A stretch of 64,000 nt of DNA from Sphingomonas sp. (lineage in GTDB: Bacteria > Pseudomonadota > Alphaproteobacteria > Sphingomonadales > Sphingomonadaceae). Position numbers and translations under genes: made by a program. Location: NCBI RefSeq assembly GCF_019635455.1, contig NZ_JAHBZJ010000009.1:98349-162348 (forward strand), read 5' to 3'. The notes beneath the pieces are model-generated. The model made no database searches, had not been told where the DNA came from, and was given only the letters and a program-made list of their open reading frames with translations. Positions 51,473 to 64,000 of the stretch are shown piece after piece; the first letter of the stretch is position 1; every line of letters begins with the position of its first letter.

Positions 51473-53167
51473 CTATCGCCGCCAGATCGCCTCGACCGCT
51501 TCGCTTCGTCGCAGCACGCGCGCCATCGGGTCGATCACCACATGCGCATCGGCCGGCACCGATACGCTGTCGCGGCCATCCGTCATTGCCAGCCGCTGCG
51601 TTCGCCCGTCCACCGCGATATCGATCGGCATCGGAAAGGGCGCGCCGCCGGGCGCCCGCCATTCCAGCGTCAGCCGGTCGCCCGTGCGCGTCTGGACCAG
51701 ATCGGGCAGCGCGGCCTGATGCAGATAGACGTTGAAGAACCAGGTGAGATCACGGCCGGCGGCCTCTGTCATCAACCGCTCGAATTCGGGGGTGCTGGCG
51801 AAGCGGGGCGTGAAATTGCCCGGCCTTGGATCGGGGCGGCCGTAAACCAGGCGTCGGGTCGCGTCGAAGAATGCCGCATCGCCGATCAGGTAGCGCAGCG
51901 TGTGGAGAACCCAGGCGCCCTTGTAATAAATGTCCTGGCCCGGCCCGCCCTGTTCGGCCTGATAGACGTCTTCGGATGTCCGCACCCGGCCCGAAACCAG
52001 CGGCTTCAGATTGAGGATGTTGCGCCGCTGCTGCGCCATCATCGCGGCGTAGCGCGCCTCGCCCTCGCGCCACTGGCCATAGAGCGGCTGCATATATTGC
52101 GCATAGCCCTCGTGGAGCCAGAAATCGTCCCAGTTCGCCGCCGTCATCTGGTTGCCGAACCATTCGTGCGCCAGTTCGTGCTGGAACAGCCAGTCGAAGC
52201 CGGTCTCGTCCTTGCGATAATTGTTGCCATAGGCGTTCACCGTCTGGTGCTCCATGCCCATGTGCGGCGTTTCGACCACGCCCAGCTTTTCGCTGGCGAA
52301 GGGGAAGGGGCCGATCATCGCTTCGAAAAAGTCGAGCGTGGGTGCGAACTCGGCGAACAGCCCCTTTGCCTGCCGATCCTTCCCCGTCAGATACCACAGG
52401 TGCATCGGCACCTTGTTGCCGAAGCGGCTGGCATAGTCGGCACTGAGCTCCCGATAGGGGCCGATATTGATCGCGACGAGATAGGGGTTGATGTTCCGTG
52501 CGTCCCAGCTCCAGCGCGACCAGCCATCGGCGAGCGGCGTCTGCCCCCTGAACACGCCGTTCGCGATCGCCTGCACGCCCGGCGGTGCGGCGATGTTCAG
52601 GCGGACGCGGCCGACCTCGCCCGCCGGAAAGTCGAGACACGGCCAGAACAGGTCGCAGCCATAGCCCTGCGCCGTCGTCGCGACCCATGGCTTGCCCTCC
52701 CATTCCGACCACACGATGCCGTCATCCCATGGCGCGTTCACCGCCTCATGCGGCTTGCCCGCATAGGTGATGCGTACCGTCGCCCGACCGTCCGCCGCGA
52801 TCGGGCGGGGAAGGGAGATGGCGAGGCGCCCCTCCGGGTTCGACCATGCGCCCGGTTTGAGGGCGGTGCCGTCGATGCTGATCGCCGAGACCGTATAGTT
52901 GCGGTCGAGATCGATCAGCAGGCGGGTCTGGCGGATCGCGGTCGTGACCTGCAACGTGGCGATGCCGGACAGGAACTTGCGCGCCGGATCGACCCGGATG
53001 TCGAGATCGGCCTGTTCGAGCCGCAGCGCCGCGCGCTCGGCATCGATCTCGCCGCCCGACCGTGCGGTGAGCGCCGTGATCGGCGGCAGCCCCTTTTGCG
53101 CGAAGGCGGGAGGCGCGAGGAAACAGAGCGCCAGCGCCAAGACGTGATTGATGCGGCGACCCGACAC
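51473..53167 (-). CDS. M1 family metallo-aminopeptidase, secreted
   Basis: GMEHQT exopeptidase motif, HELAHEWFGN (HEXXH) plus WLHEG, YYKGAW; signal peptide ending AFAQ; GTG start at 53167 inferred. Confidence 0.9.
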   Translation of the reverse strand: MSGRRINHVLALALCFLAPPAFAQKGLPPITALTARSGGEIDAERAALRLEQADLDIRVDPARKFLSGIATLQVTTAIRQTRLLIDLDRNYTVSAISIDGTALKPGAWSNPEGRLAISLPRPIAADGRATVRITYAGKPHEAVNAPWDDGIVWSEWEGKPWVATTAQGYGCDLFWPCLDFPAGEVGRVRLNIAAPPGVQAIANGVFRGQTPLADGWSRWSWDARNINPYLVAINIGPYRELSADYASRFGNKVPMHLWYLTGKDRQAKGLFAEFAPTLDFFEAMIGPFPFASEKLGVVETPHMGMEHQTVNAYGNNYRKDETGFDWLFQHELAHEWFGNQMTAANWDDFWLHEGYAQYMQPLYGQWREGEARYAAMMAQQRRNILNLKPLVSGRVRTSEDVYQAEQGGPGQDIYYKGAWVLHTLRYLIGDAAFFDATRRLVYGRPDPRPGNFTPRFASTPEFERLMTEAAGRDLTWFFNVYLHQAALPDLVQTRTGDRLTLEWRAPGGAPFPMPIDIAVDGRTQRLAMTDGRDSVSVPADAHVVIDPMARVLRRSEAVEAIWRR

Positions 53168-53174
53168 CCCATAT
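53147..53174 (+). promoter_or_regulatory. RpoH (sigma32)-type heat-shock promoter for lon
   Basis: ATTGAT-N14-CCCCATAT, compared with the sigma32 consensus CTTGAA-N13/14-CCCCATNT; about 40 bp before the lon ATG. Confidence 0.65.
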
Positions 53175-53216
53175 AGACGGCATGTGCCGCCTATCGTGGC
53201 GGACTCCGGAGTATTC

Positions 53217-55628
53217 ATGAAGTCCACCTATCCCGTCCTTCCGCTTCGCGACATCGTCGTCTTTCCGCACATGATCGTGCCGTTGTTCGTCGGGCGCGAC
53301 AAGTCGGTCGCCGCACTCGAGGCGGCGATGGCCGACGACAAGGAGATTTTCCTGGTCGCCCAGCTTGACCCGGCGAACGACGATCCGGGTCGCGACGACC
53401 TGTACGACATGGGGGTGTCGGCCGAGGTGATGCAGCTGCTCAAGCTGCCCGACGGGACGGTGCGCGTCCTGGTCGCGGGCAAGGAGCGCGGCAAGCTCGA
53501 ATCGATGGAGGAACGCGACGGGTTTCTGAGCGCCGCCGTCTCGCCGGTCGATGCGGACGATACGACACTGGAGGCGGCGAGCGCCGACCTGAAGGCGCTG
53601 ATGCGATCGGTGATCGATCAGTTCGAAAACTATGCGAAGCTCAACCGCAAGCTGCCGGCGGAGACCGCAGTGCAGCTGGGCGAGATCGACGAGCCCTCGC
53701 GCCTGGCCGACGCGGTTGCCGGAAACATCGCGGTGAAGGTCGCCGACAAGCAGAGCCTGCTGGTCGAAACCGATCCGCGCAAGCGGCTGGAGATGGTATT
53801 CGCCTTCATGGAGGGCGAGCTGGGCGTGTTGCAGGTCGAGAAGAAGATCCGCAGCCGCGTGAAGCGCCAGATGGAGAAGACCCAGCGCGAATATTATCTC
53901 AACGAGCAGCTGAAGGCGATTCAGCGCGAGCTGGGCAATGAGGGCGAGGAAGGCGAGGGCGACGAGATCGCCGAGCTGACCCAGAAGATCGCGACGCTCA
54001 AGCTGAGCAAGGAAGCCCGTGCCAAGGCGCAGGGCGAACTCAAGAAGCTGAAGACCATGGCGCCGATGAGCGCCGAGGCGACGGTCGTGCGCAACTATCT
54101 CGACGTGTTGCTGGGCCTGCCCTGGGGCAAGAAATCCAAGCTGAAAAAGGATCTGGTCGAGGCGGAGCGCGTGCTCGACGCGGATCATTACGGGCTGGAG
54201 AAGGTGAAGGACCGGATCGTCGAATATCTGGCGGTTCAGGCGCGGACGAACAAGCTGAAGGGGCCGATCCTGTGCCTCGTCGGCCCGCCGGGCGTCGGCA
54301 AGACGAGCCTTGGCAAATCGATCGCCAGGGCGACCGGGCGCGAGTTCATCCGCCAGTCACTGGGCGGTGTACGCGACGAGGCGGAAATCCGCGGTCATCG
54401 CCGCACCTATATCGGATCGCTGCCGGGCAAGATCGTCACCAACCTGAAAAAGGCGGGGACCAGCAATCCGCTGTTCCTGCTCGACGAGATCGACAAGCTG
54501 GGCCAGGATTTCCGCGGCGATCCCGCCTCCGCGCTGCTCGAGGTGCTGGATCCGGAACAGAACAGCAAGTTCAACGACCATTATCTGGAGATCGACGTCG
54601 ATCTGTCGGACGTGATGTTCGTCACCACCGCGAACTCGCTGAACCTGCCGCAGCCGTTGCTCGACCGGATGGAGATCATCCGTCTGGAAGGCTATACCGA
54701 GGACGAGAAGGTCGAGATCGCGAAGGGGCATCTGCTCGCCAAGCAGATCGACGCCCACGGCCTGAAGGAAGGCGAGTTCGAGCTGACCGAGGACGGTCTG
54801 CGCGACCTGATCCGCTTCTACACGCGCGAAGCAGGCGTCCGCACGCTGGAACGCGAGATCGCCAAGCTCGCCCGCAAGGCGCTGCGCCGCATCCTGGAGG
54901 GCAAAACCGAACGCGTGGTCGTCACGCCGGAAAATCTCCACGAGTTTGCGGGCGTGCGCAAATACCGGTTCGGCATCGGCGAGGAGGAACATTCGATCGG
55001 CGCGGTGACGGGCCTTGCCTGGACCGAGGTCGGCGGCGAGCTGTTGACCATCGAAAGCGTGACCGTGCCGGGCAAGGGCGCAATCAAGACCACCGGCAAG
55101 CTGGGCGACGTGATGAAGGAAAGCGTCGAAGCGGCGTTCAGCTTCATCAAGGCGCGCAGCCCCAGCTATGGCATCAAGCCGAGCATTTTCGCGCGCAAGG
55201 ACGTTCACGTCCACCTGCCCGAAGGGGCCGTGCCGAAGGATGGACCGTCCGCCGGTATCGGGCTGGTCACCTCGATCGTATCGACGCTGACCGGCGTCCC
55301 GGTGCGAAAGGATGTCGCGATGACCGGGGAGGTCACGCTGCGCGGTCGCGTGCTGCCGATCGGTGGTCTTAAGGAAAAGCTGCTCGCGGCGTTGCGCGGG
55401 GGCATCGAAACGGTGCTGATCCCCCAGGAAAACGAGAAGGATCTCGTTGAAATCCCGGCGAATATCCGTGAGAGCCTGAAGATCGTGCCGGTGTCGCATG
55501 TCGATGAGGTGCTGAAGCTCGCGCTGACCGAGACGCTCACACCGATCGATTGGACCGATGCGGACGAGCTTGCGGCCCAGCCGGCGCCGGCATCGGGCGC
55601 GGGCGGCGCGGAGGGTGTGCGCCACTGA
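53217..55628 (+). CDS. lon: Lon protease (endopeptidase La)
   Basis: PVLPLRDIVVFP, Walker A GPPGVGKTS, DEAEIRGHRRTYIG, PKDGPSAG (catalytic Ser), PIGGLKEK. Confidence 0.99.
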   Translation: MKSTYPVLPLRDIVVFPHMIVPLFVGRDKSVAALEAAMADDKEIFLVAQLDPANDDPGRDDLYDMGVSAEVMQLLKLPDGTVRVLVAGKERGKLESMEERDGFLSAAVSPVDADDTTLEAASADLKALMRSVIDQFENYAKLNRKLPAETAVQLGEIDEPSRLADAVAGNIAVKVADKQSLLVETDPRKRLEMVFAFMEGELGVLQVEKKIRSRVKRQMEKTQREYYLNEQLKAIQRELGNEGEEGEGDEIAELTQKIATLKLSKEARAKAQGELKKLKTMAPMSAEATVVRNYLDVLLGLPWGKKSKLKKDLVEAERVLDADHYGLEKVKDRIVEYLAVQARTNKLKGPILCLVGPPGVGKTSLGKSIARATGREFIRQSLGGVRDEAEIRGHRRTYIGSLPGKIVTNLKKAGTSNPLFLLDEIDKLGQDFRGDPASALLEVLDPEQNSKFNDHYLEIDVDLSDVMFVTTANSLNLPQPLLDRMEIIRLEGYTEDEKVEIAKGHLLAKQIDAHGLKEGEFELTEDGLRDLIRFYTREAGVRTLEREIAKLARKALRRILEGKTERVVVTPENLHEFAGVRKYRFGIGEEEHSIGAVTGLAWTEVGGELLTIESVTVPGKGAIKTTGKLGDVMKESVEAAFSFIKARSPSYGIKPSIFARKDVHVHLPEGAVPKDGPSAGIGLVTSIVSTLTGVPVRKDVAMTGEVTLRGRVLPIGGLKEKLLAALRGGIETVLIPQENEKDLVEIPANIRESLKIVPVSHVDEVLKLALTETLTPIDWTDADELAAQPAPASGAGGAEGVRH

Positions 55629-55789: not shown

Positions 55790-56062
55790 ATGAACAAGCA
55801 GGAATTGATCGCGACGGTCGCGGATACCGCCGGCCTGAGCAAGGGCGATGCGAGCAAGGCGGTCGAGGCCGTGTTCGACGCGGTGACCGCCTCGCTGAAA
55901 AAGGGCGACGAGGTTCGGCTCGTCGGCTTCGGCACCTTTTCGGTTTCGAAGCGCAAGGCATCGACCGGCCGCAATCCGCGTACCGGCGAACCGATGACGA
56001 TCAAGGCCTCGTCGCAACCCAAGTTCAAGGCGGGTAAGGGCCTGAAAGACGCGGTCAACTGA
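55790..56062 (+). CDS. hupB: HU DNA-binding protein
   Basis: MNKQELI, VRLVGFGTF, GRNPRTGE, PKFKAGKGLKDAVN; downstream of lon. Confidence 0.96.
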   Translation: MNKQELIATVADTAGLSKGDASKAVEAVFDAVTASLKKGDEVRLVGFGTFSVSKRKASTGRNPRTGEPMTIKASSQPKFKAGKGLKDAVN

Positions 56063-56174: not shown

Positions 56175-56249
56175 GGGCGCGTAGCTCAGTGGTAGAGCAC
56201 TGTGTTCACACCGCAGGGGTCGCTGGTTCAATCCCAGCCGCGCCCACCA
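56175..56249 (+). tRNA. tRNA-Val (anticodon CAC)
   Basis: GGGCGCG/CGCGCCC acceptor stem plus ACCA, AGCTCAGTGGTAGAGC D arm, CTGTG-ttCACac-CGCAG anticodon arm, GGTTCAATCC T arm; 75 nt. Confidence 0.97.
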
Positions 56250-56354
56250 TCTAAAGCCGGGCTATCCGGTCATTTTTCGGTCTCCCCGTTGAATGACAGG
56301 AAGCCCGGCTCCGATGCCAGTCCGGTGCAACGCGCCTGGCATTCGGGAGTCGAT

Positions 56355-56920
56355 CTACCTGATGATCCCTTCCCACACGGCGGCGACAGCGGGGAAGTCC
56401 TCCCCGAATCGCATAGGTTGCGGTGGTGTCGCCCCGGGGGGGGGGGGGCATGAAGCCCGGCACCTCACATTTCGGCGCGCCGCGGCGGCGGCAAACGGGG
56501 CGAGGCTGTGCCGCAGCAGGTAGGGCATCCGTTCGCGCGTTGTCGGCAGCTTCAGCGCGACGAGCATCGCGGTCCATGACGAATCGACGTCTTGGACGGG
56601 GCGGCCGTAATAGTTGGACCAGCCAGCCACGAGACGCGCGCTGATCAGGCTCCAGCTGGTCATATGAAGCCCATTCTTCGGTCAGCCACCGGTCGAGCAA
56701 CGGTAGGATGGGCAAAACCGGTCGAAACATCTCGTCGTGCTGGTGAAGCGCAAGAACGCGACGCACGGATCATTCTCGGGAAAGCCGTTGCGGGCGAAGG
56801 CGTCGCCGGCTTCAATGAAATCCACCATGTGCTTGAGCCCGCGCCGCGATGGTGTCGGCCGAGCTTTGCAGATCGCCAGGCTCGAGGCGATAGTCGGCGA
56901 TTGCGTCCAGCACCCGCAGA
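56355..56920 (-). pseudogene. Fragmented tyrosine recombinase/integrase
   Basis: Segments in shifting frames: DAIADYRLE..DTIAAR / LKHMVDFIE / FRPVLPILPLLDRWL / NYYGRPVQDVDSSW...PYLLRHSLA (HxxR-like, Y in place of H) / RRGAPKCEVPGFM..TTATYA (catalytic Tyr region). At least three frameshifts, a G13 tract and no intact N-terminus. Confidence 0.75.
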
Positions 56921-57281
56921 GCAGATCGCGGCGATTGCCGAGCGCATCCGCGCCGATGCGTCAGTCCGCACGATGAGCCTGGAAACGCGGGTCGATCGCA
57001 AGCCGATGTTCGATGCACGGATCAGGGAATCGCTCGCGCTGGTCCACGCCGAAATCGCCTATGGCCGCTGGCGCGCCTCGCTCGGCGTGTTCACGGCGCC
57101 GGTGCTGGAGAGATCGTCGATGACCGGGGTATCGATCGTCGCGAAGCGCTATCGCCTGGGCGTCAACCGGGCGCGACGGCTGTTGATCGACGCGCTCGAC
57201 AGCTGGCTCAGCATGCTGCGCGACGCCCAGCGCAGCGTCGGCCGCGTCGGGCTGGATGAAGCGCACGCCCGCCTGAATTGA
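56913..57281 (+). pseudogene. Probably 5'-truncated phage-like hypothetical gene
   Basis: Coding-like frame AEQIAAIAERIRADASVRTMSLETRVD...YGRWRASL...AKRYRLGVNRARRLLIDALDSW starts exactly where the integrase remnant ends; the internal ATG at 56973 has no SD. Confidence 0.5.
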
Positions 57282-57302
57282 CCGGGGGCGTGCGCCTCGT
57301 CT

Positions 57303-58559
57303 TCAGCTGATCGTTCCGAATGCCTTCCATGTCGTTGGAGCTGCGCTGACGCAGACCCACCCGATCGGCTGGCCCGAGCTGGGCGCGGTGTTGGTGACGA
57401 GATCACCGACGGCCCAAGTTTCCGATGTCGGCGGCGCGCTGTCGAACACCTCGACAACGCCACCTTGCCTAAGCCGCATGCGATCTTCGCCATTCCAGCG
57501 GATGATCGCCTTGTGGATGCCGAAATCGGCCAGGTTTGCGGCGATCGGCGAGCCACCTGGCGCGGTCTGGATGAACACTTCGTTGGTCACCAACGTACCC
57601 GCCGTCGGGACGACCGTATAGATCGTGCCGCTGGAGCTGTCGGTGAACGTGGTATCCTGAAGCCGTATGGTGTGCAGGTCGAGCAATGCGCCATCCAGAC
57701 GAAGCACGTAGCAGTCGGCGTCACCCGAAATATCGATGTTGTTCCCGACGCCGTGGACCTCGCCAATCCGCATCGAGGCGCAATTGAACAAGGTGATGAG
57801 ATTGAGCTGACCGGTCATCGCCGACGGATCGCAGCTCTCAAAATGCAGATAGTCGATCTTACCCGACGAGCTCTCGATATACAGCCATTCCTTCTGGAGG
57901 TGATCGCCTATCAGGTTGGTGATAAGCAGCCCGACGGTCGCACGGAACCGGTGTCCCTTTGATTCGGGTTGCTCGAGGTTCTCTGGCTGTAGTGCGTAAA
58001 CGTTGCGAATGGCGAGATTGGTGTTGCCGCCGTTCGCGGCGTCGCAATCGATGTCGAGACCCCAGTTTGAACAGCCATAAGCGGTTACATTCGCGATCTC
58101 ACCGTCGAAAACGAAGCTGCCAGTTTCGGGCGGATTGCCGATGCCGGTGTTCGCGTCCCGGATGGTAAGCGGTCCGGCGATCAGGAAGTTGTAGCTGTAG
58201 GAATTGGCGGCGGAGAGCTTGATCCCGATCGCGCCGGTCTGTTCATGATCTTGCTGGGTCAGATAACACAGCAAGCCGGGTCCATGGATCGACCAGCCGT
58301 TGTTCTGACTGGTTTTGCTCACTTCGATGATTGCGATATCGTCCGTGTCCATCCGGATCGTCGCGCCGTTGACCTCGAACCTGACGCCGCTGCCCAAGAT
58401 CAGGGTGTCGGTTATTCGGTAGACCGCACCGCAAGCCAGCGTGACTGTGCCGCCGCCGCGACCATGGATGAAGTCAATCGCCTGCTGCACCGCAGCCGTA
58501 TCATCGGCGATGCCATCGCCGACGGCGCCGTAATCATAGGGAGACGCAAATTCCTGCAT
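57303..58559 (-). CDS. Right-handed beta-helix (pectate-lyase-superfamily / tailspike-like) protein, 418 aa
   Basis: SD GGAGG; N-terminal SPYDYGAVGDGIADDTAAVQQAID..GGGTVTL; Asn/Ile-rich beta-coil middle; C-terminal APPTSETWAVGDLVTNTAPSSGQPIGWVCV; no signal peptide; intact frame. Confidence 0.8.
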   Translation of the reverse strand: MQEFASPYDYGAVGDGIADDTAAVQQAIDFIHGRGGGTVTLACGAVYRITDTLILGSGVRFEVNGATIRMDTDDIAIIEVSKTSQNNGWSIHGPGLLCYLTQQDHEQTGAIGIKLSAANSYSYNFLIAGPLTIRDANTGIGNPPETGSFVFDGEIANVTAYGCSNWGLDIDCDAANGGNTNLAIRNVYALQPENLEQPESKGHRFRATVGLLITNLIGDHLQKEWLYIESSSGKIDYLHFESCDPSAMTGQLNLITLFNCASMRIGEVHGVGNNIDISGDADCYVLRLDGALLDLHTIRLQDTTFTDSSSGTIYTVVPTAGTLVTNEVFIQTAPGGSPIAANLADFGIHKAIIRWNGEDRMRLRQGGVVEVFDSAPPTSETWAVGDLVTNTAPSSGQPIGWVCVSAAPTTWKAFGTIS

Positions 58560-58727
58560 ATGCTGGTGTCCTCCAACTTGGCTCACGCCATGGTCTCGCT
58601 GCGATAGGGCAGCGCGCCCGCCCGCCATCACGACGCGCGATATGATCCTGCCGACGGCGGCTCGCCGAGGCTAGGCCGTTCAGCGTGCGGTCACGACGAC
58701 GAGTCCTTGCCGCGCCCACCATCTTTG

Positions 58728-58759
58728 AGGGGCGGGGTTTCCACGGAAATCCCGCCCCT
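58728..58759 (+). terminator. Hairpin just after attR (probably the displaced original tRNA-Val terminator)
   Basis: AGGGGCGGGGTTTC-cacg-GAAATCCCGCCCCT followed by T. Confidence 0.6.
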
Positions 58760-58845
58760 TGTCATATGCGCGTCATCTCTACGCTTATCGCGGAGCGAAT
58801 CGCGCCGGAGCGTCCGGCGCGGCCCTTGAGCCGAAGGTCGTTCCG

Positions 58846-59346
58846 ATGCGCATGCTGCTTGTCGTTCCCGCGTTGCTTTCCCTCCTCACCGCCTGCGGCC
58901 AGCAGGCGCCTCAGGCCGCGCAGGGTGGCAACACCGCACAGCCCGCCACCGCTGTCGCCGAAACGCCCTCGGCCGACGCGATGGCCGCGAAGCGGCAGGT
59001 CACGCGCTATTTCGAGAGGATCGCGGCGCGCGACTTTGCGCGCGCGCACGCCTTCTGGGCCGATGGGGGCAAGAGTTCGGGCGGTTCGGTCGCCGACCTG
59101 AAGCGCGCGTTCGAACCCTATGCGAAATATGCCGGGACCGCGGGCGATCCGACCGAGGTGAAGGTGAGCGGCGATACCGCCTATATCATCGTCCCGGCGA
59201 CCGCGGAGGCGACGATCCGCAAGACCGGGGTGATGCGCGATCTGTCCGGCATGGTCTATCTCAAGCGTTCGGTCGCGCCGAAGGGCGGGGATGCGGCCGC
59301 CGGCGACTGGAGGATCTGGGCCGTCGATCTGCGCCGCGCGCATTAA
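58846..59346 (+). CDS. Hypothetical lipoprotein
   Basis: Lipobox LLSLLTA-C; mature domain QVTRYFERIAARDFARAHAFWADGG...YIIVPA. Confidence 0.75.
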   Translation: MRMLLVVPALLSLLTACGQQAPQAAQGGNTAQPATAVAETPSADAMAAKRQVTRYFERIAARDFARAHAFWADGGKSSGGSVADLKRAFEPYAKYAGTAGDPTEVKVSGDTAYIIVPATAEATIRKTGVMRDLSGMVYLKRSVAPKGGDAAAGDWRIWAVDLRRAH

Positions 59347-59388
59347 GGCCGGAATGCCGGAACCGCGGCGCGACGGGCTTTGGCGCCG

Positions 59389-59417
59389 CTGTCACGAAAC
59401 GGTCATGGCGTCGTAAC
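59389..59417 (+). promoter_or_regulatory. Pho box (PhoB site), three half-sites at 11-bp period
   Basis: CTGTCAC-gaaa-CGGTCAT-ggcg-TCGTAAC, compared with the consensus CTGTCAT-N4-CTGTCAY. Confidence 0.7.
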
Positions 59418-59549
59418 CAATCCATCATCGCGGAGTCATCGAAGAATCACAGCTGACCCCTAGTCGGCGCTCGTCAGCGACGGGCGGCTCCGGCACGCCG
59501 CACGTTGCGGAGCTTCTGTTTGCCGGGGCGATGTCAAAAGGGGATATCC

Positions 59550-61235
59550 ATGAAAACCGTTCGTAACATCCTGCTGGCCGGCTGTTCGGCCGCAGTGCTC
59601 ACCGCTTGCAACGGCGCGTCGGACGTCGCTTCGCCGGGCGCCGGCACGGTGAACGTCAACATCTCGAACCCGGCACCGACCCCGACGCCCACGCCCGCGC
59701 CGACCAGCTCGCTCGTCACCCCGGCGACCGGCTGCCCGACGATCGCCGACCCGCAGGGTCTGGCCGATGGCGGCACGATCACCGGCCCGACCGGCACCTA
59801 TCGCATCTGCACCCTGCCCGCGCGCTTCGTGCGCAGCGTGACGCTGCCCAAGATTTCGGGCCTTCTGTATCAGCTCGCCGGTCGCACCGACGTCGGCTAC
59901 GACAACGGCCCGACCGCGCTCAGCTCGACCAACACCCGCACCGTGACCGATCCGTCAGGCGCGACGATCACGCTGACCGCCGATTCGAACGTCACGCTGA
60001 CGATCCAGCCGGGCGTGATCATCTATGCCAACACCGGCGTCGCCTGGCTGAACGTCAACCGCGGCAACAAGATCCAGGCCGCCGGCACCGCCAGCGCGCC
60101 GATCATCTTTACCAGCCGCGACAACATCCTGGGCCTCAACACCGACAATTCGTCGGGCCAGTGGGGCGGCGTCGTGCTTTCGGGCCGTGCGCCGATCACC
60201 GACTGCGCCGCGAGCAGCGCGACGCCGGGTACGGTCGCCTGTGAGCGCCAGACCGAAGGCGCCGTGGACCCCGCGCTGTACGGCGGTGCCACCGCCACCG
60301 ACAACAGCGGCACGCTCAGCTTCGTGCAGATCCGCTATTCGGGCTATGTGCTGTCGGCGAACAGCGAGCTTCAGTCGCTGACCACCCAGGGCGTCGGTTC
60401 GGGGACCACGCTCGATCATATCCAGACGTTCAACAGCTCGGACGACGGCGCCGAATTCTTCGGCGGCCGCGTCAACATGAAATATTACATCTCGGTCGGC
60501 GCCGAGGACGATAATCTGGATACCGACACCGGCGTGAAGGCCAATTTCCAGTATGTGATCGCGGTTCAGCGCAACGGCGCGACCCCGGCGATCGCCGACG
60601 CGATGATCGAGGCCGACTCGGACAATGGCGTCGATGGCGACAATCCGCGCCAGAATGTGTTCCTGTCGAACTTCACCTTCATCGACCGGGTTGCGGGTAA
60701 CTCCGACGTCGCCTCCATCCTGTTGCGCGGCGGCACCGACTATACGCTGGTGAACGGCGTGATGCTCAACACCGTGACCAACCCGTGCCTGCGCATCAGC
60801 CGCGCGCAGACCGCCTCGACCACGCAGAATGCGGCGATCGACGAATATGGCGCCCCGCAATTCCGTTCGGTGGTGTTCAACGGGTGCGGCAGCCAGCCCT
60901 TCGTCGGCGCGAACAGCGTCACCGACGCGCAGGTTTCGGCGATCTTCGGTTCGGGTAGCAACAACAACAATGTCAACTACACGCCGACCCTCACCAGCCT
61001 GTTCGTGAACGGTGCGAACGAGACCGCGGTCACCGCGTTCAACGCCGCGACGTTCAACGGCCAGTCGTTCAACGGCACCACGCTGACGCCGACCGGCTTC
61101 TTTGACACGACGACCTATATCGGCGCGGTCAAGGACGCCAACGACAACTGGTACAAGGGCTGGACCTGCAACAGCGGCACCGCCAGCTTTGGGACGGGCA
61201 ATACGGGTCTTTGCACCTCGCTCCCGACCACCTGA
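59550..61235 (+). CDS. Beta-helix lipoprotein (ElpS-like, phosphate-starvation type)
   Basis: Lipobox AVLTA-C; PTPTP linker; WGGVVLSGRAP, DNSGTLSFVQIRYSG, SSDDGAEFFGGRVN, EDDNLDTDTG repeats; Asn/Thr-rich. Confidence 0.8.
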   Translation: MKTVRNILLAGCSAAVLTACNGASDVASPGAGTVNVNISNPAPTPTPTPAPTSSLVTPATGCPTIADPQGLADGGTITGPTGTYRICTLPARFVRSVTLPKISGLLYQLAGRTDVGYDNGPTALSSTNTRTVTDPSGATITLTADSNVTLTIQPGVIIYANTGVAWLNVNRGNKIQAAGTASAPIIFTSRDNILGLNTDNSSGQWGGVVLSGRAPITDCAASSATPGTVACERQTEGAVDPALYGGATATDNSGTLSFVQIRYSGYVLSANSELQSLTTQGVGSGTTLDHIQTFNSSDDGAEFFGGRVNMKYYISVGAEDDNLDTDTGVKANFQYVIAVQRNGATPAIADAMIEADSDNGVDGDNPRQNVFLSNFTFIDRVAGNSDVASILLRGGTDYTLVNGVMLNTVTNPCLRISRAQTASTTQNAAIDEYGAPQFRSVVFNGCGSQPFVGANSVTDAQVSAIFGSGSNNNNVNYTPTLTSLFVNGANETAVTAFNAATFNGQSFNGTTLTPTGFFDTTTYIGAVKDANDNWYKGWTCNSGTASFGTGNTGLCTSLPTT

Positions 61236-61249
61236 TCCACGCGGCATGA

Positions 61250-61288
61250 CCGGGGGTGGGGCGCGCCGGCGGCACGCTCCACCCCGTT
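61250..61288 (+). terminator. Intergenic hairpin between the lipoprotein and the TonB-dependent receptor
   Basis: CGGGGGTGGGGCG...CGCTCCACCCCG-TTT inverted repeat; a partial terminator or mRNA-stability element. Confidence 0.5.
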
Positions 61289-61308
61289 TCCAATTCGTAC
61301 AGGGGGTA

Positions 61309-64000
61309 ATGATGGCCAGGCCGTTGCAGCTTGCGAGCGTTTTTCTATTCACCACCGCGCTCGTCGCGCCGTCGATGGCGCACGCCGCGCCGCAGGACAC
61401 GCCCGGGGCGGCACAGCAGACCGATCAGCCTGACGCGGCGGAACCGGCCGGCGCGCAGCCGGCGGACGGCGGCCAGCAGGATGTCGAGATTTCGGCGCCC
61501 GGTGCCGGGATCGTCGTGACCGGCCGGCGCGAAACCAATGTGTCGCGCACCCAGCCGCAGGTCGTGACCGTCCTGACCACCGAGGATATCGCGCGGACCG
61601 GCGAAGGCGATATCGCCGGATCGCTCGGTCGTGCGACCGGCCTGAGCGTGGTGGGCAACGGATATGTCTATGTCCGCGGCCTGGGCGATCGCTACTCGCT
61701 CGCGCTGCTCAACGGCTCGCCATTGCCCAGCCCGGAGCCGTTGAAGCGCGTCGTTCCGCTCGACCTGTTCCCGACCAGCATCATTTCATCCTCGCTGGTT
61801 CAGAAAAGCTATTCGGCGAATTATCCGGGCGAATTCGGCGGCGGCGTGATCAACCTCACCACCAAATCGGCCCCGCGCGAAGCGTTCCTGACGCTGGGCG
61901 GCAGCCTGGGCTATGATTCGGCGACGACCGGCCAGCTTGGCTACACCTATTATGGCGCGGACGACGACTGGACGGGATTCGACAACGGCACCCGCACGCT
62001 CAAGCCGTCGCTGCGCGCCTATCTGAACAGCGGGCAGCGGATCAGTTCGGGCAATGTCGATACCAGCGTGATCGCCGCCGATCTGGTGACGAGCCGCAAT
62101 GCGCTGGTCCAGCGCAACACCGATATCCCCGCAAACTGGTCGTTCGATGCGACCGGCGGCTTTTCGACCGATATCGGCGCCACGCGGATCGGCGTGATCG
62201 CGACCGCCGGCCTCAGCAACAAATGGCGCACGCGCGACACGATCCAGCAGACCGCCGCCAGCCGCGACCTGTCGATCAAGGAACTCGATTTCCGCCGGGT
62301 CATCACCGATCAGCGCGCGGTTGCGAACGCGCTGCTGGGCATCAACGCGAAGTTCGACCAGAATGTCGTGCGCCTGACCGGCCTGTTCATCCGCGACACG
62401 CTGAAACAGGCGCGGCTGGGGCAGGGGACGCGTCAGACCGGCGATCCCAACGCCACCTATATGCAGCAGGATACGGCGTGGTTCGAACGCCAGCTGATCG
62501 ATCTGCAAGGCGTCGCCGAATTGCAGCTGACCCCGGAACTGAGCGTCAACCTGCGTGGTGGCTATGCCAATACGCGACGCAATGCCCCGGACGAGCTGAG
62601 TTTCGAATATTATCGCAGCAACCGGGCGGCGGACCCCTATGGCCAGCTGTTCATCAACCGGTTGAACAACGGTCAGCAGGGACGCGGCGAGGTCAGCTAT
62701 TCCTACCTCAACGAAAATCTGTGGTCGGCCGGCGCGGACCTTTCCTATCGCTTTTCGCCCGCGATCACCGCGGTTGTCGGCTATGCCTATGCGGACACCG
62801 ATCGCCGTACCGAACGGCGCGATTTCCAGTTCACCGCGTCGAACACGTTCCCGACCTATCTGGCGCTGCTGCGGCCCGACATGCTGCTGTCGCGCGGGGT
62901 GATCGCCTATGGCCAGGATAGCCGGAACCCGACGCCCTACACGATCGGCGTGACCGACACGAACGAGGCGAACCCGGTGTTCGACGCGGCGCTGACCAAT
63001 CACGCCGGCTATGCCCAGGCGCTGGTCAAGCTGACCGACGCGGTTCGCCTTGACCTTGGTGTGCGGTATGAAACCGCGCGACAGACGGTGACGCCGGTTC
63101 AGGTGTTCACCGTGCCGACCGCATCGCTGGCGGGAACGGCGTTGAACCGCGATTACTGGCTGCCGGCGGCGACGCTCACCTGGGAAATCGCCGACCGGAT
63201 GCAGTTCCGCGTCAGCGGGTCGAAGACCATCGCCCGGCCGCAGTTCCGCGAGCTGATCTTCCAGTCCTATTTCGATCCCGACAACAACCGGATGTTCCGC
63301 GGCAATCCCCGCCTGGTCGACAGCCAGCTGTATAATGGCGAGGCGCGGCTGGAATGGTATTTCGCGCGCGAACAGCGCGTGTCGATCGCCGGATTCTACA
63401 AGAAGATCGACAAGCCGATCGAAACCTATGCCAGCTTCAGCGACAATGACGTGCTGAGCAGCTTCGCCAACGCGCCGCGTGCGCAATTGTGGGGCGGCGA
63501 GATCGAGCTGGTGAAATACATCAATCTCGACGGTCTGGGCGAATCGGGCTTCTTCTCGACCCGCCGACTGGTGGTGATCGGCAACTATACCTACACCCAG
63601 TCGAAGATCATCGTGCGGTCGGGCGACACGGTCGATGCCTTTCCGCTGGCCGCGTCGCAGGCGAGCGATTTCTTCACCAACGGCGCGCCGCTGACCGGCC
63701 AGTCGAACCACCTGGCAAATCTTCAGGTCGGTATCGAGGATACGGGCAAGCTGTCGCAGATGACCTTCCTGCTCAACTATGCGAGCGAGCGGGTCACCAA
63801 TCGCGGTGCGGCCGGGCAGCCGGACATCAAGGAGCATCCCGGCTTCCGCCTCGATTTCGTGGCGCGGCAGGGGATCAACATCCTTGGCACCGAGACCGAG
63901 CTGAAGCTGGAGGTGCGCAACATCACCGGTGCCAGCTATCAGGAGTATCAGGAATCGGGCGCGAACCGGATCTATTACAACCGGTACAAGGTCGGGCGGA
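61309..64000 (+). CDS. TonB-dependent outer membrane receptor, truncated by the window end
   Basis: ATGATG after AGGGGG; signal peptide; TonB box GIVVTGRR; plug motifs TEDIARTGEGDIA, YVYVRGLGDRYS, PSPEPLKRVVPLDLFP; barrel motifs KTIARPQFREL, YKKIDKPIE. The frame stays open to 64000, so it is absent from the ORF track. Confidence 0.93.
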   Translation, partial: MMARPLQLASVFLFTTALVAPSMAHAAPQDTPGAAQQTDQPDAAEPAGAQPADGGQQDVEISAPGAGIVVTGRRETNVSRTQPQVVTVLTTEDIARTGEGDIAGSLGRATGLSVVGNGYVYVRGLGDRYSLALLNGSPLPSPEPLKRVVPLDLFPTSIISSSLVQKSYSANYPGEFGGGVINLTTKSAPREAFLTLGGSLGYDSATTGQLGYTYYGADDDWTGFDNGTRTLKPSLRAYLNSGQRISSGNVDTSVIAADLVTSRNALVQRNTDIPANWSFDATGGFSTDIGATRIGVIATAGLSNKWRTRDTIQQTAASRDLSIKELDFRRVITDQRAVANALLGINAKFDQNVVRLTGLFIRDTLKQARLGQGTRQTGDPNATYMQQDTAWFERQLIDLQGVAELQLTPELSVNLRGGYANTRRNAPDELSFEYYRSNRAADPYGQLFINRLNNGQQGRGEVSYSYLNENLWSAGADLSYRFSPAITAVVGYAYADTDRRTERRDFQFTASNTFPTYLALLRPDMLLSRGVIAYGQDSRNPTPYTIGVTDTNEANPVFDAALTNHAGYAQALVKLTDAVRLDLGVRYETARQTVTPVQVFTVPTASLAGTALNRDYWLPAATLTWEIADRMQFRVSGSKTIARPQFRELIFQSYFDPDNNRMFRGNPRLVDSQLYNGEARLEWYFAREQRVSIAGFYKKIDKPIETYASFSDNDVLSSFANAPRAQLWGGEIELVKYINLDGLGESGFFSTRRLVVIGNYTYTQSKIIVRSGDTVDAFPLAASQASDFFTNGAPLTGQSNHLANLQVGIEDTGKLSQMTFLLNYASERVTNRGAAGQPDIKEHPGFRLDFVARQGINILGTETELKLEVRNITGASYQEYQESGANRIYYNRYKVGR

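Follow-up and report, generated by a model that had tools for sequence, protein, structure and literature searches.

Phage tailspikes and depolymerases (Sf6, HK620, P22, AS12 gp42, CBA120 TSP1-3 and Klebsiella DpK2/Depo32) are the closest described counterparts of a beta-helix gene, here called P0001, that lies at 57303-58559 on the minus strand of the window, by which we mean the whole stretch of DNA analysed (64,000 nt from Sphingomonas sp., assembly GCF_019635455.1, contig NZ_JAHBZJ010000009.1, positions 98,349 to 162,348). Like the predicted P0001 product, these proteins are built on a right-handed helix of ~360 residues (Z 28-31 in structural comparison), and an N-terminal cap motif is common to P0001 and many tailspike families of PHROG. 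The relatives of P0001, as tailspikes do, belong to phage tail modules, and T7-tail or P22 head-binding adapters are found on them. P0001 itself differs in being without an N-terminal particle-binding domain, in sharing only 12-15% identity with tailspikes, and in standing alone in an apparent prophage remnant of 2.5 kb with one early-region open reading frame (ORF), not in a tail module. The beta-helix fold (Z 30-31) and the cap are shared as well with the A-modules of the mannuronan C5-epimerases AlgE4/AlgE6 and with PfbA, a pneumococcal adhesin; unlike these, P0001 has no R-modules or anchor and has a phage-type context and family. We consider it moderately likely that P0001 is an orphan phage gene for a receptor-binding or depolymerase-type beta-helix, left in a young, nearly erased prophage at tRNA-Val as passenger DNA that encodes a competent-looking enzyme.

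The P0001 gene and its predicted product

The gene and its parts are located as follows (pLDDT, predicted local distance difference test):

57303..58559, minus strand: beta-helix gene P0001, 418 amino acids (reading frame, homologues, AlphaFold2 pLDDT 96.9)
58570..58574, minus strand: Shine-Dalgarno sequence GGAGG, 10 nt upstream of the ATG (ribosome-binding site and start also kept in L101 and L106, the metagenome contigs of the relatives P0002 and P0003)
57480..58559, minus strand: right-handed parallel beta-helix body, residues 1-360 (structure prediction and comparison; conservation across 61 relatives)
57306..57458, minus strand: C-terminal small beta module, residues 368-418 (also present at the distal end of numerous phage fibres and tailspikes)

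An earlier note on this DNA had described an intact gene of 418 codons with a Shine-Dalgarno sequence, an N-terminal cap motif with nothing virion-attaching and no signal peptide before it, a C-terminal module and an upstream region beside attR, and had assigned the product to pectate-lyase-like beta-helices with kinship to phage tailspikes and depolymerases. These descriptions agree with the reading frame, the PHROG matches, the homologues, the AlphaFold2 model and the VIA-align comparison reported here, and the structure prediction that the note had proposed gave, as an AlphaFold2 monomer, a right-handed beta-helix. The minus-strand frame is uninterrupted over 57303-58559, with 418 codons and a stop, and its ATG occupies 58557-58559. 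HMMER returned 42 homologues of P0001 at E < 1e-30, and P0001 is therefore a real gene, not a chance ORF. Its GC content is 59.2%, with a GC at third codon positions (GC3) of 0.74, compared with ~63-69% GC for the window and GC3 values of 0.81-0.88 for the neighbouring host genes.

The product begins MQEFASPYDYGAVGDGIADDTAAVQQAID, so that only seven residues stand ahead of the N-terminal cap, which has the pattern YGAVGDG..DDT..Q.AID; on reading the N-terminus, no hydrophobic signal-like stretch and no signal peptide were visible. Residues 9-60 matched PF12708 (E 4.6e-5), with a score of 23.8 bits that is below the 27-bit gathering cut-off of the model; the same model matched 28 of 61 members of the P0001 family, with a best E of 8.2e-16. 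The N-terminal stretch also matched more than 15 tailspike and tail-fibre PHROG families, always at about their positions 100-260. Sequence matches in the PDB were to AlgE6, AlgE4 and PfbA (E about 1e-6; residues 6-66, with 8-57 for the AlgE-type epimerases) and to phi92 gp150, and were confined to the first ~60 residues. The Pfam scan of P0001 gave no RTX, R-module, cell-wall anchor or secretion-type domain, and the GH28 profile PF00295 was not among the matches at E <= 1; the likeness to GH28 is at the level of the fold only. By its sequence and predicted structure, P0001 belongs to the pectate-lyase-like right-handed beta-helix superfamily (the PF12708 clan).

The AlphaFold2 monomer was modelled with an alignment of 61 full-length relatives of P0001. 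Relatives known from metagenomes number ~60. In the model (pLDDT 96.9; predicted template modelling score, pTM, 0.92), a beta-helix extends from residue 1 to ~360 and is followed by a small beta domain at residues 369-416. VIA-align comparison of the model with solved structures gave Z 27-31 for more than 40 beta-helix proteins, including Z 28-31 for AS12 gp42, Sf6, phi29 gp12, CBA120 and the Klebsiella depolymerases. The scores for AlgE4/6, RbmB, inulin fructotransferases and GH28 enzymes were equal to those for tailspikes (Z about 31), and the fold therefore sets the superfamily, not the chemistry. The best match among viral models (BFVD) was A0A6J5M1A3, a 'pectate lyase superfamily protein' of 656 residues from an uncultured Caudovirales (31% identity, TM 0.77).

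Along with the cap motif (residues 8-60), the beta-helix body includes a set of polar residues that are conserved to varying degrees across the 61 aligned sequences: E241 (61/61), Q103 (59/61), T180 (59/61), D219 (58/61), N273 (50/61), N181 (45/61) and H220 (39/61). All seven are present in P0001. D219 and E241 are one coil apart, as are D339 and E372 of the HK620 tailspike, where the mutant entries point to a carboxylate pair so spaced, and we infer that D219 and E241 are the putative catalytic pair of P0001. At family-conserved positions, P0001 deviates at 4 of 31, 11 of 74 and 28 of 120, which is no worse than other members, and the protein still looks competent by this measure.

At the other end of the protein, residues 368-418 matched phrog_21471 at its extreme C-terminus (E 1.8e-12), phrog_23059 and the C-termini of tail-fibre PHROGs, and many fibre-like proteins found by HMMER matched P0001 solely at residues ~365-418, sometimes in tandem. 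Structural neighbours of the module in the ESM Atlas were 88-100% viral in most rows, and the viral ones comprised T7-type fibres, P22-type tailspikes, and collagen-like and YadA-like fibres. We regard the module as a candidate new domain family. Its ~50-residue pattern, W.VGD..N..P....GWVC..G.PG.W (encoded at 57306-57458), corresponds to no Pfam family. Many proteins that match the cap or the full length of P0001 end in this module, some of them with 2-6 copies in tandem. PDB sequences gave the module no name, the only matches being negligible SH3-like ones (obscurin SH3, E 0.11; R67 DHFR, E 0.3).

Relatives of P0001 and the short-form clade

An exhaustive HMMER search detected 4,478 proteins at E <= 1e-3, most of which match the N-terminal cap or the C-terminal module only. 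Among the 61 aligned full-length relatives, 48 carry an N-terminal extension of 30-299 residues, and a second C-terminal module is common as well. Phage_T7_tail, P22 Head_binding and endosialidase N-terminal domains occur among the extensions, which also resemble the beginnings of tail-fibre, tailspike and virion-structural PHROGs. Where the neighbourhoods of relatives could be annotated, which was the case for few, they were phage structural gene arrays: one relative follows genes for a J-like central fibre and a tail fibre (L113), another stands ahead of a tail-fibre gene (L110), and a third lies between a gene for a virion structural protein and genes for the scaffold and major head proteins (L003). 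On the viral contig L021, a single match spanning the full query was split over two adjacent, tandem tailspike-type ORFs (ORF listing, tblastx). P0134, with 415 residues, is an adapter-less member inside a tight phage tail-gene array; absence of the adapter is therefore no sign that a protein has left the virion or been domesticated.

A tblastn search of 50,697 phage records with P0001 matched the terminal modules only, with no full-length homologue in a cultured phage. No full-length homologue was present in 300 sampled genomes of the same bacterial family, a scan of GTDB genomes gave no closer relative, and a scan of metagenomes gave none closer than P0002 and P0003. As judged from these searches, the P0001 family is known from metagenomes and uncultured phages only, and no member is characterised.

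P0002 (417 residues) and P0003 (419 residues) are as short as P0001 and share 67-69% (by alignment) and 65% identity with it, respectively. The start MQEFASP is identical in all three, each frame is closed by stops a few codons further upstream, and the ribosome-binding site is conserved. P0004 (53% identity) and P0121 (45%) carry extensions of 99 and 137 residues. In trees built with FastTree and IQ-TREE, the short trio was nested inside the long forms, with 97% bootstrap for the pairing of the window copy with that of L101; because of this nesting, the trees indicate a single loss of the adapter that predates the divergence of the three short copies. Compared pairwise, these copies gave dN/dS values of 0.19-0.25; dS was 0.6 between the closest two and approached saturation in the other pairs. 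At the codon level, the short protein is seen to be under purifying selection and has thus been functional somewhere since its truncation, be it in a phage or in a host.

Portal, DUF6127 and S78 prohead-protease genes immediately precede both P0002 (L101:1-2370) and P0003 (L106:2-1714), which stand in the place expected of a major capsid gene and are followed by host-type genes such as GFA. On contigs of this length (<= 3 kb), the arrangement could be a truncated gene transfer agent (GTA), a truncated prophage or a real gene order. P0004 lies between acetyl-CoA hydrolase and aldo-keto reductase genes. A mobile cassette with shared flanks was considered and dropped, as blastn and tblastx found homology only inside the gene and its ribosome-binding site.

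The islet at tRNA-Val

P0001 is one of two ORFs in a short islet bounded by direct repeats, whose features are:

56175..56249, plus strand: tRNA-Val (anticodon CAC), the integration target (ARAGORN; Lon, HU and tRNA-Val are syntenic in three same-genus genomes)
56237..56252, plus strand: attL core, 16-bp direct repeat GCCGCGCCCACCATCT, overlapping the 3' end of tRNA-Val (exact match)
56256..56280, plus strand: terminator-like hairpin and T-run on the islet side, now after tRNA-Val (terminator scan)
56436..56448, plus strand: tract of 13 G in non-coding DNA at the left of the islet (read from sequence)
56592..57281, plus strand: ORF of 229 amino acids, of an unnamed phage early-region family, convergent with P0001 (homologues in genomes of the same bacterial family)
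58709..58724, plus strand: attR core, the other exact copy of the 16-bp repeat, which lies 149 bp ahead of the P0001 ATG
58729..58758, plus strand: GC-rich hairpin just outside attR (read from sequence)

In the window, the genes for Lon (53148-55628) and HU (55790-56062) precede tRNA-Val. The whole 3.15-Mb genome has just two exact copies of the 16-mer GCCGCGCCCACCATCT, both of them in the window, and an imperfect similarity to the tRNA continues at attR for ~8 bp further left. Between the repeats lie 2,472 bp, 79% of which is covered by the two convergent ORFs; the remainder, on the tRNA side, is ~340 bp without coding sequence. In one genome of the same genus (G264), the distance from tRNA-Val to the downstream match is ~700 bp, compared with ~3.3 kb in the window, and a second (G109) is alike; the 2,472 bp are therefore an insertion that is missing from both. 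A third congener (G195) matched the Lon-to-tRNA part of the query only and was not informative on the islet. In the relatives a hairpin directly follows tRNA-Val, and the hairpin at 58729-58758 is, on its sequence and position, probably the one that originally did so here.

The 229-residue ORF has homologues of 35-43% identity in 15 of 300 genomes of the same bacterial family, and the two that were examined are 229 and 235 residues long. The neighbours of the homologues (HicB-like, LexA/replication-like, Mu Gam-like, DNA methylase and endonuclease VII genes) are those of a prophage early region. The ORF itself had no Pfam or PHROG match and no match among the 50,697 phage records. By eye, the conserved C-terminal half of the protein is helix-turn-helix-like. 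In all frames of 56251-57302, neither Pfam nor PHROG gave a match, and a scan of the whole genome with PF00589 (E <= 10) gave integrase matches on six other contigs and none in the islet. A group II intron maturase, suggested by a GW.NYY-like string on the minus strand at 56355-56681, was dropped for want of Pfam support. The islet looks young by sequence because the repeats are exact, the GC content has not shifted towards that of the host, the insertion is missing in congeners and no full-length P0001 homologue is found in the 300 genomes.

Two further observations concern the edges of the islet. The run of 13 G at 56436-56448 is a possible slippage-prone tract or weak spot of the assembly. 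To the right of attR, the host genes of 58759-64000 are a 195-residue ORF with weak SnoaL/DUF4440-like hints, a 576-residue ORF and a long ORF that leaves the window at its end; parts of these ORFs are conserved beside tRNA-Val in same-genus genomes.

Explanations of the locus and comparison with known systems

In the explanation that we favor, a temperate element entered the 3' end of tRNA-Val by site-specific recombination, leaving the 16-bp direct repeat. The prophage was later deleted to 2.47 kb, integrase included, with a remnant of two convergent ORFs that both seem intact. In the source phage, the short protein may have acted on a surface polysaccharide, which would be cut in a putative groove holding the conserved D219/H220 and E241, while the C-terminal small beta module would aid sugar binding or the cohesion of subunits. 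The protein could have docked on the virion via another tail protein, or could have been freed at lysis as an enzyme. In the present host it would have no evident exit route and no phage or GTA partner, and the gene would most likely be passenger DNA, not a recruited host function.

The earlier note had proposed instead that the gene is a moron, kept by the host and serving it. A host that had domesticated P0001 would express an adapter-less depolymerase for the trimming of capsule or exopolysaccharide (receptor block), for dispersal of biofilm on lysis or for attack on competitors. Such a role would fit an intact ORF with its Shine-Dalgarno sequence, the retained putative catalytic residues, a dN/dS of about 0.2 for the short form, and nearest relatives that adjoin host genes or stand last in decayed phage-like clusters. 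However, the neighbouring phage early gene, which the note had taken for a phage-like fragment of opposite orientation, is a real, convergent ORF that from its sequence appears to be full-length, not a fragment, and is just as intact; with the islet also young, the intactness of P0001 therefore needs no selection. Adapter-less members are found inside phage tail modules, the GC content of the gene is unshifted towards the host, and the islet is missing in two same-genus genomes, with no full-length homologue in 300 genomes of the family. For export, no signal peptide was visible in the N-terminus and Pfam gave no secretion-type domain, and a scan for consensus sigma-70 promoters, which excludes alphaproteobacterial promoter types, detected none in the 149 bp from attR to the ATG. 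The terminator scan found none for the P0001 gene. We consider domestication unlikely, and the claim that the gene is kept and serves the host found no support. On whether homologues occur only as virion genes with the N-terminal domain deleted here, a point that the note had raised against its own proposal, the answer was divided: distant homologues do carry adapters and, where annotated, lie in structural arrays, but the nearest copies are also short. Several observations weigh against passenger DNA as the explanation. Purifying selection acts on the short form in three copies and two genomic settings, with which a host-level function is compatible. In relative-rate tests with L002 as outgroup, the window lineage had 50 amino-acid changes compared with 24, and 67 compared with 21, while the distant outgroup L108 gave 33 compared with 34; counts of synonymous-only codon changes were similar between the lineages. 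An excess of two- to threefold over the nearest relatives in amino-acid change, as estimated from these sequences, is compatible with partly relaxed constraint and also with adaptation or altered specificity. The additional changes spare the positions conserved in the family. P0004 amid metabolic genes, together with P0002 and P0003 at the edge of truncated head clusters, could also be read as repeated retention amid phage decay. An adapter-less tailspike lineage might then be a free-standing depolymerase that Sphingomonadaceae-type hosts retain repeatedly as phage and GTA genes decay, remodelling surface polysaccharide, for example for receptor-level phage exclusion; we regard this broader proposal as rather doubtful.

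It is quite improbable that P0001 acts in trans, as a spike for a resident prophage, GTA or satellite, or as a soluble depolymerase at the lysis of another element. The C-terminal module is typical of virion fibres, and the position of P0002 and P0003 directly after RcGTA-like head-type portal, DUF6127 and S78 protease genes would suit such a role, but P0001 has no adapter domain, and neither an S78 protease nor an HK97-type capsid gene was found in this genome, which is 99.98% complete. A portal match was obtained only once, to the first ~93 positions of the profile, inside a 481-residue frame on contig C12. The first ~134 residues of this frame match portal proteins and the remainder a 'glycoside hydrolase' family of GTA and phage tails. 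The frame belongs to a cluster outside the window (C12:373261-381086), where it follows a large terminase gene (448 residues) and precedes tail-assembly and tail-protein genes. The cluster looks, from its gene content, like an RcGTA-like cluster that has lost its head genes, the N-terminus of the portal being fused to a tail-type protein. With no S78 protease, no capsid gene and a deleted cluster on C12, a spike in trans is therefore unlikely in this genome. On split clusters or spike genes in Sphingomonadales, a paper on GTAs (PMC9765227) held nothing relevant. The chemistry might also differ from that of a glycanase, with P0001 an AlgE-type polyuronate C5-epimerase or lyase, or a non-catalytic adhesin like PfbA. 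AlgE6, AlgE4 and PfbA gave the best PDB sequence matches, and VIA-align gave Z about 31 at 17-19% identity to AlgE-type A-modules. The conserved D219-H220 pair may also recall the DPH motif of AlgE enzymes. Against an epimerase or adhesin, the sequence similarity is confined to the first ~60 residues, the structural comparison scores tailspikes, inulin fructotransferases, RbmB and GH28 alike, the RTX, R-module and cell-wall anchor domains are missing from the Pfam matches, and every annotated relative is in a phage-type setting. We hold this alternative to be highly improbable.

If active, the protein would be a compact, adapter-less depolymerase candidate (418 residues), confidently modelled and drawn from an uncharacterised family of uncultured phages, and could help to find the surface glycan receptor of the phages that infect this group of bacteria. 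The locus also calls for caution, as an intact phage gene in a tiny att-bounded islet is no evidence of domestication when the islet is young and the other ORF is equally intact. Were domestication true, P0001 would be a further example of hosts keeping phage depolymerases, a reading that the present data do not require.

Compared with known systems, P0001 resembles the lambda lom and bor morons and the tail-fibre remnants of defective E. coli prophages in being a phage gene that survives at the end of an element, beside att. A moron, by contrast, is defined by independent expression in the lysogen and a benefit to the host, and P0001 encodes a structural or enzymatic protein of phage type, not a typical host-fitness factor. 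Its true homologues are A0A6J5M1A3 and the family of P0121, P0005 and P0134, which share 31-45% identity over the 418 residues and have the same C-terminal module. The family members around these three are mostly 450-750 residues long, with an N-terminal extension and often a second C-terminal module, and P0001 is short by comparison. On this evidence, P0001 is an adapter-less addition to an uncharacterised beta-helix family of phage tailspikes and depolymerases.

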